Source of the DNA: a virus
DNA length: 64,000 nt
Strand: one strand, 5' to 3'
UHGV virus genome: UHGV-0054069
Below are positions 20,485-21,315 of this stretch, in pieces (the stretch's first letter is position 1; each line of letters starts with the position of its first letter). Both the position numbers and the translations under genes were made by a program. Under the pieces are notes generated by a model. The model made no database searches. It had not been told where the DNA came from and saw only the letters and a program-made list of their open reading frames with translations.

Positions 20485-20697
20485 ATGAAGCCTTATGGTA
20501 GACATGGTAAAGTTGAAATTGCAAGTTGTGGTTGCTGTGCTTCTCACGATGGTGAAGAAGATTACTACAAGTGGCGTACAGACCATCGTAGACGCTTTCT
20601 CAGAAGAGATAAGAAGAAAGCTAGACAGGAATCTCGAAAGAATATTGCAGAATTAGTTCAAACGGATAGAGCAGCAACCTACGAAGTTGTTTGTTAG
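20485..20697 (+). CDS. small basic Cys-rich protein; 3' end overlaps tRNA-Arg
   Basis: AGGAG RBS 6 nt before ATG; CGCCASHD motif; last ~50 nt overlap tRNA. Confidence 0.4.
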   Translation: MKPYGRHGKVEIASCGCCASHDGEEDYYKWRTDHRRRFLRRDKKKARQESRKNIAELVQTDRAATYEVVC

Positions 20698-20723
20698 GGG
20701 TTCGAATCCCTTATTCTGCACCA
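20647..20723 (+). tRNA. tRNA-Arg (ACG)
   Basis: acceptor GCAGAAT/ATTCTGC; AC stem GCAAC/GTTGT, loop CTACGAA. Confidence 0.65.
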
Positions 20724-20741
20724 ATTTTAGAAGGTAATTAT

Positions 20742-20969
20742 ATGCGTAAACTCATTATTGAAAGGCATAAAGATGCTGACAAGATTGAAACAACACAAGT
20801 TGGGGACACTGACTTCATTCTTGTAGGTTGGAAATGTGACCCAATAGCAGTTATGAAGGTTGTTCATGGTTTTGCAGGAATTGAATTTAATCAAATCATA
20901 TTTGAAACGCTATTACCAGAAAATCAGGATACGTGTAATAACGCATATGTCCTGACAAGAGTTCGTTAG
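20742..20969 (+). CDS. small protein (75 aa), paralog of 21014..21241
   Basis: start at MRKLIIE after tRNA-Arg, RBS AGAAGG; about 60% identical to neighbour. Confidence 0.5.
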   Translation: MRKLIIERHKDADKIETTQVGDTDFILVGWKCDPIAVMKVVHGFAGIEFNQIIFETLLPENQDTCNNAYVLTRVR

Positions 20970-20996
20970 GGGTTCGAATCCCTTATTCTGCACCAA
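20967..20996 (+). pseudogene. duplicated tRNA-Arg 3' fragment (T-arm + acceptor 3' strand + CCA only)
   Basis: GGGGTTCGAATCCCTTATTCTGCACCA identical to 3' end of tRNA-Arg; no 5' half upstream. Confidence 0.55.
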
Positions 20997-21013
20997 ATTT
21001 AAAAGGGTAACTT

Positions 21014-21241
21014 ATGTTTAAACTCATAGTTGAAAAACACCCAGAAGATGACAAGCTTGAAACAGGGAGATTTGGAGATACTTTCTTTATCAGAGTTGGC
21101 TGGAAAGCTGACCCATTAGAAGTTAGAAAGATTGTCTACAACTTTGCTGGTTTGGAATTAAAGCAAGTCATCTTTGAAACAATGTTGCCAGAAAATAAAG
21201 ATACATGCAATAACGCATATATTCTTACAAGAGTTAGTTAG
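21014..21241 (+). CDS. small protein (75 aa), paralog of 20742..20969
   Basis: shared ..GDT.F..VGWK.DP..V.K.V..FAG.E..Q.IFET.LPEN.DTCNNAY.LTRV. Confidence 0.5.
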   Translation: MFKLIVEKHPEDDKLETGRFGDTFFIRVGWKADPLEVRKIVYNFAGLELKQVIFETMLPENKDTCNNAYILTRVS

Positions 21242-21315
21242 GGGATTAGTTTACAAGGTTAAAACCTCGGTCTTTGAAATCGAAGAAGTTGGTTCAATTC
21301 CAACATCCCCCGCCA
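21240..21315 (+). tRNA. tRNA-Gln (UUG)
   Basis: AC stem TCGGT/ATCGA, loop CTTTGAA; T-arm GTTGG-TTCAATT-CCAAC; starts at stop of upstream ORF. Confidence 0.6.

Follow-up and report, generated by a model that had tools for sequence, protein, structure and literature searches.

Two diverged alleles of a small gene and a fragment of tRNA-Arg in tandem within a phage tRNA array: a probable product of unequal recombination

Results

Small genes lie among the tRNA genes of a Mooglevirus phage

The DNA analyzed here, which we call the window, is a stretch of 64,000 nucleotides from the virus genome UHGV-0054069. It belongs to a FelixO1-like myovirus of the Ounavirinae, genus Mooglevirus, and the genome is of the virulent myovirus type. 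Compared with Shigella phage ESh21, the backbone is 98-100% identical in nearly every 200-nt tile, the exceptions being a variable stretch at 17800-19800 and the inserted unit described below. The region 20300-21700 is 99% identical to Citrobacter phage BSwM KMM4, and a metagenome contig, ULRN01024863.1, matches the window at 100% over 5.5 kb.

In the interval 17514-22600, ARAGORN called 24 tRNA genes, each of them on the plus strand; a tRNA-Glu and a tRNA-Tyr were added to the array by Rfam and by comparison with relatives. Three small open reading frames are embedded in one part of this array, together with a detached piece of tRNA-Arg (Table 1). An earlier note, made from the letters of the DNA, had described these elements, and the ARAGORN and Rfam tRNA calls and the ORF list agree with the positions that it gave. 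The tRNA piece also exists as described, although its limits had been put at 20967-20996, which is off by 1-2 nt. Between tRNA-Arg(ACG) and tRNA-Gln(TTG), neither ARAGORN nor the Rfam tRNA model called a tRNA, at E-values up to 10. A nearby endonuclease was considered as the driver of the rearrangement at this locus and was rejected, because no endonuclease-sized ORF was seen in the window's tRNA array.

Table 1. Features of the tRNA-Arg to tRNA-Gln region (window coordinates)
Feature	Position	Strand	Evidence and remarks
ORF70 (70 aa, basic, C-x-CC motif; phrog_10765)	20485-20697	+	E-value 3.5e-49, covering positions 1-70 of 70; AGGAG ribosome-binding site 7 nt upstream
tRNA-Arg(ACG), intact	20647-20723	+	ARAGORN; Rfam tRNA model, 59.6 bits
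Junction 12-mer, copy 1, GTTTGTTAGGGG	20689-20700	+	Variable loop and T-stem 5' strand of tRNA-Arg; proposed crossover site in the B-type parent
75-aa gene, allele A	20742-20969	+	phrog_14202, E-value 1.6e-34; 99.2% identical to the single-copy gene of ESh21/ESh22
Junction 12-mer, copy 2, GTTCGTTAGGGG	20961-20972	+	Novel joint: end of gene A fused to the tRNA-Arg T arm
Orphan tRNA-Arg 3' fragment (part of variable loop, T arm, 3' acceptor strand, ACCA)	20965-20995	+	Identical at 31 of 31 positions to 20693-20723
B-type spacer with ribosome-binding site AAAGGG	20996-21013	+	Matches the tRNA-Arg-to-gene spacer of B-type single-copy phages
75-aa gene, allele B	21014-21241	+	phrog_14202, E-value 1.2e-37; 91% (nt) and 97% (aa) identical to SFPB_122
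Junction 12-mer, copy 3, GTTAGTTAGGGG	21233-21244	+	End of gene B overlapping the tRNA-Gln 5' end; counterpart of the A-type parent's proposed crossover site
tRNA-Gln(TTG)	21240-21315	+	ARAGORN, Rfam; shares its first 2 nt with the end of the gene B stop codon

The small ORFs are protein-coding genes of known families

Each of the three small ORFs has a purine-rich, Shine-Dalgarno-like sequence 6-9 nt upstream. All belong to PHROG families, and dN/dS is low both in the 75-aa family and in the core of ORF70, so that the earlier proposal of genuine genes inside the tRNA array holds. The 75-aa genes and ORF70 are already annotated as hypothetical proteins. No Pfam domain, including GIY-YIG and HNH, was detected in either the 70-aa or the 75-aa proteins.

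ORF70 consists of two parts. Codons 1-55 form a conserved core with a dN/dS of 0.07-0.3, and the last 51 nt (16 codons and the stop) are at the same time the 5' part of tRNA-Arg, at 20647-20697, in agreement with the overlap of about 50 nt that had been reported. ORF70 occurs in 42 phage records, 41 of which carry the form that reads into tRNA-Arg, and variation among the residues of its tail is confined to positions at which the tRNA itself varies. Silverhawkium carries a form of 80 aa, which has a stop codon of its own 1 nt ahead of tRNA-Arg; the same form is found in a record labeled E. coli. Aligning ORF70 with the Silverhawkium gene reveals a clean 82-nt gap bordered by TGC. With moderate confidence, this alignment suggests that the common form arose by an 82-nt deletion, in which the last 25 codons of the 80-aa gene would have been lost and replaced by the 16 tRNA-encoded codons that now follow; we infer the direction of this change. 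In more distant relatives, tRNA-Leu(CAA) directly adjoins tRNA-Arg, without ORF70. The overlap of ORF70 with tRNA-Arg is an event separate from the tandem that is the main subject of this report.

For both 75-aa genes, the match to the phrog_14202 profile covers positions 1-75 of 76, and every sampled copy of the gene has exactly 75 codons, except for a frameshifted copy in KMM2. The coding-type conservation on which the earlier note had staked its reading of these ORFs is present: dN/dS is 0.04-0.25 across the alleles of the family. It is 0.24 between A and B, at a dS of about 1.0 (saturated at synonymous sites), and 0.05-0.08 between B and the SFPB-type alleles (SFPB, KPS64, ESh19); 16 synonymous and 5 non-synonymous differences separate the window's B from SFPB.

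Two further analyses that had been suggested for the 75-aa proteins were run. The homologue search found 22 homologue clusters, and structure prediction gave a small alpha/beta fold with generic structural neighbors only, the best model (pLDDT 79.5) being a generic small alpha/beta sandwich. A conserved hairpin in the part that encodes DTCNNAY is kept among Mooglevirus alleles and absent from the distant homologues L016-L018; we set it aside as a probable side effect of the coding sequence.

The slot between tRNA-Arg and tRNA-Gln is variable in related phages

Across 256 related phage records, the slot between tRNA-Arg and tRNA-Gln takes five forms. It is empty in Michonne, Moogle, and Mordin. 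Elsewhere it holds one 75-aa gene, a 75-aa gene together with a 186-aa DUF7338 gene (HP1), DUF7338 alone (the phiSUSP1 and pEC-M719 types), or two 75-aa genes, as in KMM4 and the window. The distant homologues of the 75-aa protein (32-49% identity; the 22 clusters) come from Felixounavirus proper (wV8, UAB_Phi87) and from more remote phage contigs. Wherever the context was read, the clusters lie in Ounavirinae-like tRNA arrays, and in every case read the distant homologue is followed by DUF7338, with a 4-nt overlap, and then by tRNA-Gln(TTG). This constant arrangement implies that the gene pair is an old resident of the array that has been partly lost in Mooglevirus lineages. Judged from these gene orders, the ancestral slot would have held a small gene of about 75-80 aa and then the membrane-anchored DUF7338, of which Mooglevirus lineages appear to have lost one or both in various combinations. 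The DUF7338 protein, of 185 aa, has one N-terminal hydrophobic helix. We have not adopted the label "holin" for it; in the phage HP1 paper this label rests on database similarity alone and is described there as unverified.

A 272-nt unit occurs twice, and its parts differ in age

A repeat search identified a unit of 272 nt that is present twice, head to tail, without gaps and without intervening sequence, at 20689-20960 and 20961-21232; the copies are 75% identical. A repeated unit of about 270 bp carrying the 3' end of tRNA-Arg, as had been proposed, is therefore a real feature of the window. Identity is distributed very unevenly within it. The orphan tRNA-Arg fragment, in the second copy, is unchanged, and an exact 31-nt repeat in 64 kb cannot be a product of chance. 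The adjacent spacers share only 11 of 18 positions (61%), and identity between the ORFs is 72% at the nucleotide level and 64% at the amino-acid level. The spacer that follows the real tRNA-Arg is of the A type, and that following the orphan fragment is of the B type, as in single-copy B phages.

If all parts of the unit had the same age, the probability of finding 0 changes in the 31 nt of the fragment would be about 1e-11 at the synonymous rate and 2e-7 at the spacer rate. The contrast between a dS of about 1 for A and B and an unchanged fragment implies that the divergence of the two genes predates the tandem: the joint is young, and the alleles that it joins are old.

All three unit boundaries are marked by a 12-mer, GTTnGTTAGGGG, which occurs at 20689, 20961, and 21233 with an exact spacing of 272 nt. 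Its core is an 8-nt match, GTTAGGGG (8/8; 11/12 with flank), found in the T stem of tRNA-Arg, at the boundary of the variable loop and T stem, and also at the gene end and tRNA-Gln start of single-copy phages. A short match that is present in both parental contexts thus lies exactly at the novel joint.

The same joint is found in the isolate KMM4 and in two independent metagenome contigs. The latter came from a scan of metagenomes for the junction; the same search in IMG/VR gave no match. In KMM4 the orphan fragment carries one substitution, 20980 C>A, which breaks the T stem, and the tRNA-Arg of KMM4 is without that change.

Genes A and B are alleles with separate single-copy relatives

The two genes of the tandem are not each other's closest relatives. 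Gene A is nearly identical to the single gene of ESh21 (99.2%), and gene B matches the single gene of SFPB (91%), KPS64, KMM2, ESh19, and HP1 at 89-91% identity and that of Sf17-19 at 84%, whereas A is only 72-75% identical to any B. Because each copy is closest to a single-copy gene elsewhere, these comparisons indicate that A and B are alternative alleles of one orthologous gene rather than copies that diverged in place. Two further alleles, P0004 and P0014, are A/B mosaics at the protein level. The earlier idea of a duplicated unit is thus borne out as far as the repeat and its tRNA 3' end are concerned; the idea that one unit was duplicated and then diverged in place did not survive the comparison, given that the closest relatives are single-copy genes elsewhere and that dS is about 1 beside an unchanged fragment.

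It had also been argued that the intactness of both protein copies implies selection. But the tandem is young, and the presence of two intact copies then carries no information on whether selection retains the pair, so that this argument falls away.

Unequal recombination at a short match is the probable origin of the joint

These data lead us to favor, as the probable origin of the tandem, an unequal recombination between phages at microhomology, which would have joined two alleles that had already diverged and left the orphan fragment as a scar. The A allele would derive from an ESh21-like phage and the B allele from an SFPB/Sf17-like phage, and the unequal crossover would most simply have happened during co-infection, between an A-type and a B-type genome misaligned by one gene. 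The gene of single-copy phages ends in ...AGAGTTCGTTAG followed by GGGATTAG, running into tRNA-Gln, and tRNA-Arg contains ...GTTGTTTGTTAGGGG followed by TTCGAATCCC. A crossover in the common GTTAGGGG would produce the ...AGAGTTCGTTAGGGGTTCGAATCCCTTATTCTGCACCA that is observed, followed by the B spacer and gene B, with AGAGTTCGTTAGGGG joined to TTCGAATCCC. Such a crossover is predicted to leave tRNA-Arg and gene A first, then the final 31 nt of tRNA-Arg together with the B-type spacer and gene B, and lastly tRNA-Gln; the orphan tRNA piece would be a non-functional scar of the joint.

Both parental arrangements occur among the phages, and each side of the joint matches a different one, the A side being of the ESh21 type and the fragment side of the B type. 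Among the single-copy B alleles that were found, none reached 99% identity to the B of the window; the best match was 91%, which implies that the actual B donor is unsampled.

The tandem module has moved between backbones

The tandem is present on at least three backbones. In KMM4 and in the contig OIWQ01001088, the flanks switch type across the slot. Upstream, in the ORF70/tRNA-Arg stretch at 20500-20700, either of them has at most 4 mismatches to the window (A-type), compared with 10-14 in the B-type phages SFPB and KMM2. On the other side, the tRNA-Gln of KMM4 starts in the B-type manner, with GGG and not GGGG, and in both genomes the downstream DUF7217 gene differs from that of the window by about 10%, a divergence at the B-type level. 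By their flanks, KMM4 and OIWQ01001088 look like the primary recombinant.

The window, in comparison, has an ESh21-type backbone on both sides of the same module. The 595-nt module of each of the other two carriers differs from that of the window by 4 nt (about 99.3% identity), and the neighboring gene differs by about 10%. A near-identical module on diverged backbones implies that the module was passed between them; it presumably spread by homologous recombination through the highly conserved flanking tRNA genes. We also considered whether a B-type patch downstream of gene B in the window could serve as proof of its acquisition; this was discarded, since the window resembles ESh21 already at the first base of tRNA-Gln and from there onward.

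A Logan contig of 85 kb, SRR25035320, contains a single hybrid gene, with A-specific bases up to about nt 43 and B-specific bases from about nt 52. It has no private changes and includes the last codon that is specific to the window. On the simplest reading, which we infer from this pattern, recombination of A with B would have collapsed a window-type tandem into the hybrid, but the hybrid could alternatively stem from an equal crossover between A-type and B-type phages.

Some features of the distribution allow more than one reading. The topology of the arrangements, taken alone, fits equally well an in-situ duplication or an ancestral tandem whose deletion derivatives are the A-only and B-only phages. 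At this locus ESh21 equals the window minus exactly the 272-nt unit, and loss rather than gain is possible there. The presence of the tandem in three backbones indicates that it is not purely transient, and a benefit of having both alleles is possible.

Other explanations of the tandem

The tandem might instead have formed in situ, by duplication of the tRNA-Arg 3' end, ribosome-binding site, and ORF, with subsequent divergence of the paralogues; the fragment would then have been held identical by gene conversion from tRNA-Arg, and A-only and B-only phages would be deletions through the 31-nt or the 12-mer repeat. The anatomy is compatible with this history: the unit is exactly 272 nt long and ungapped, each of the three boundaries carries the 12-mer, the single-copy A and B architectures found in other phages, among them that of ESh21, are just what deletion between the repeats would leave, and the chimeric gene suggests that recombination between copies may occur. 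We nevertheless consider it unlikely. To reconcile 0 of 31 changes in the fragment with a dS of about 1 in the ORF and 39% divergence of the adjacent spacer, conversion would have to be confined to the tRNA part, and the KMM4 fragment, which differs from its own tRNA-Arg, speaks against ongoing homogenization. The tandem is known from 3 backbones, compared with 14 single-copy phage records and many without the small gene, and the near identity of the modules on backbones that are about 10% diverged is that expected of a young module. Furthermore, the divergence of A from B is within the range of flanking-gene orthologues between ESh21-type and other backbones (73-90% per tile). An error of assembly, in which a mixed population of A-type and B-type phages was wrongly stitched into a tandem, is scarcely credible. 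Phages of the two types do co-occur, and KMM2 and KMM4 come from the same Baltic sampling, but finding one and the same joint in an isolate genome and two unrelated metagenome assemblies implies that it is not an artefact. In addition, a fourth data set holds the single-copy hybrid, which matches A and B of the window exactly and is most simply the collapse of a real tandem, and a joint sequence of 8-12 nt is shorter than the overlap that assemblers typically require.

It is also conceivable that the orphan piece has a function, pairing with CCAGAA of gene A as a tRNA-like or minihelix RNA that guides processing, or forming a 3' hairpin that stabilizes the A message, with the two alleles kept by selection, for example for different hosts or defenses. 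Consistent with such a role, CAGAA pairs with UUCUG in the minimum-energy structure of 20915-21013 (-22.8 kcal/mol, z = -1.97), enclosing a hairpin and the T arm; two of the three backbones to which the tandem has spread carry an intact fragment; and the A stop codon in the tandem no longer straddles an RNase P site. However, the acceptor-like stem is absent from the centroid structure, and CCAGAA encodes the conserved Pro-Glu of an LPEN motif, so the pairing is most likely incidental. The substitution in KMM4 breaks the T stem, which counts against concerted evolution too, and the single-copy A/B hybrid and the frameshifted KMM2 copy imply that a phage can do without two copies, and even without one intact copy. 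We therefore regard a function of the fragment as very doubtful. The simpler idea that the orphan region is a degenerate tRNA was rejected: the ARAGORN and Rfam searches are blank there, and the tRNA-like fold is weak and confined to the minimum-energy structure.

A related question is whether the overlap of messages with tRNAs on one strand is a regulatory device rather than tight packing. The predicted RNase P site of tRNA-Gln falls within the stop codon of the 75-aa gene. If the overlaps were regulatory, tRNA maturation would leave the ORF70 and 75-aa messages without a stop codon on that transcript, and protein output would depend on which acted first, the ribosomes or RNase P; the fragment would free copy A from this coupling to a tRNA, which could explain the spread to three backbones. 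We think it quite improbable that the arrangement works in this way.

Discussion

Taken together, the evidence suggests that the feature is most likely a young recombination scar joining two old alleles, a tidy but ordinary product of phage recombination and no new kind of system. Its value is as a natural example of phage mosaic formation resolved to the base, in which both parental arrangements, a crossover product with its tRNA scar, its spread, and a matching hybrid are all in public data. It also presents conserved tRNA arrays as recombination platforms on which small accessory genes are swapped, and it carries a caution: diverged tandem copies that are both intact are not evidence of selection on paralogues.

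In the model of Hendrix and colleagues, illegitimate recombination at short matches gives rise to mosaic phage genomes, whose parts are then exchanged by homologous recombination across conserved flanking sequence. The window resembles this model in having its novel joint at an 8-12-nt match, with both parental arrangements extant and the module exchanged through conserved tRNA flanks. The usual outcome of mosaic exchange is that one allele replaces the other; here, in contrast, the out-of-register crossover would have kept both alleles in tandem, together with a fragment of tRNA.

The locus is also reminiscent of att sites in tRNA genes, in that the insert is flanked by a direct repeat of about 31 nt from a tRNA 3' end; the left copy is part of the complete tRNA, and the right copy is the orphan piece. 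Unlike elements bounded by att sites, however, the 272-nt unit contains no integrase or recombinase, only a 75-aa ORF with no Pfam match, and its right boundary is a short match with the neighboring gene and not an att core.

A further comparison is with homing-endonuclease genes that lie within the tRNA clusters of phages, for example T4 SegB (PMC2330249). The genes described here share with them their form as small free-standing ORFs between tRNA genes, their variable presence among relatives, and the preferential co-transfer of flanking tRNA sequence. They differ in that a nuclease domain of the GIY-YIG, HNH, or LAGLIDADG kind was not found in the 70-aa or 75-aa proteins, nor any other Pfam domain, and the predicted fold of the 75-aa protein is a generic alpha/beta sandwich.

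The nearest described case is the amplification of the tRNA cluster in phage T6, where a 718-bp unit containing tRNA-Tyr and segB undergoes segmental tandem amplification (Chihara et al. 2026, PMC13096335). The T6 copies are identical and form multi-copy ladders with a whole tRNA and a truncated ORF; they depend on the SegB GIY-YIG endonuclease, and the amplification is selected, more tRNA-Tyr defeating the Septu defense (PMC13096335). The window, by comparison, has two copies that are alleles 25% diverged, includes only 31 nt of the tRNA with a complete ORF, and has slot ORFs without a detectable endonuclease domain. What the two have in common is the tandem repetition of a tRNA piece with the adjacent ORF in a phage tRNA array and the position of the joint: in T6 a short match between the tRNA end and the 3' end of the ORF may guide recombination (PMC13096335), and the joint in the window likewise lies in a short match between a tRNA and an ORF end.

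Gene ends overlap predicted tRNA processing sites

Gene B, the second of the two 75-aa genes, ends in a TAG stop codon (21239-21241) that spans the point, at the tRNA-Gln start (21240), where RNase P is predicted to cut. This arrangement recurs in all the single-copy relatives read: there too, the stop codon of the 75-aa gene straddles the tRNA-Gln RNase P site. An RNase P cut at 20647 would remove the final 51 nt (20647-20697; 16 codons plus the stop) of ORF70, the 70-aa ORF that runs into tRNA-Arg. Cleavage at these two tRNA starts would therefore leave the processed gene B and ORF70 messages without a stop codon.

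A quasi-palindromic hairpin lies within the DTCNNAY-coding part of the 75-aa gene, with a folding energy of -13.8 kcal/mol in allele A, the first copy. It is retained across the Mooglevirus alleles, some of the changes being paired, and is missing from the distant homologues. The single copy of the gene in Citrobacter phage KMM2 (6017-6244 of that genome) is frameshifted in its first half, through a 1-nt indel or because of a sequencing error; a genuine frameshift would mean that KMM2 can do without the gene.

Other elements of the tRNA array

ARAGORN missed two tRNA genes of the window, tRNA-Glu and tRNA-Tyr(GTA); adding them to its set therefore brings the array to at least 26 tRNAs.

Features of the tRNA array
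Feature	Position	Description
tRNA-Glu	17598-17669	Rfam 53.7 bits
tRNA-Tyr(GTA)	about 18065-18151	Rfam only 22.8 bits; identical to annotated tRNA-Tyr of phage Sf17
Intergenic repeat, four copies	17672-17713, 17833-17874, 18297-18330, 18374-18415	33-34 nt, ACAGAAGRCC...CAGCAA
Second orphan tRNA 3' piece	18417-18457	T arm, 3' acceptor strand, CCA
tmRNA_permuted match	18829-19014	33.5 bits, E = 1.7e-4
Promoter-like site	19352-19381	TTGACA-18-TATAGT
tRNA-like fold	19381-19466	86 nt, -21.7 kcal/mol
75-aa gene hairpin	20935-20966, also 21207-21238
DUF7217 gene	21686-22417	244 aa, acidic, Ser/Thr-rich

Three of the four repeat copies lie directly 3' of a tRNA-type ...CCAAAT end, the exception being the copy at 18297; the repeats could be processing or promoter elements. 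The second orphan piece has an upstream partner of just 5 bp and is minihelix-like, with neither D arm nor anticodon arm. The tRNA-like fold, detected by neither ARAGORN nor Rfam, has a 9-bp acceptor-like stem, a T arm (GGGGTTCGAATCC) and a GCCA end, and the promoter-like site is immediately 5' of it. The Rfam tmRNA_permuted match falls below the gathering score of 47 and begins within tRNA-Ile; its tRNA-like part probably drives it.

The DUF7217 gene is also part of the array, with tRNA-Phe on one side and tRNA-Ser on the other. Backbones with a near-identical module of gene A, orphan tRNA-Arg fragment and gene B differ from one another by about 10% in this gene. In distant relatives (L017-L020), where the neighbouring tRNAs are different, its place is kept: tRNA-Gln(TTG) still lies upstream of it, and tRNA-Ser(GCT) comes right after it.
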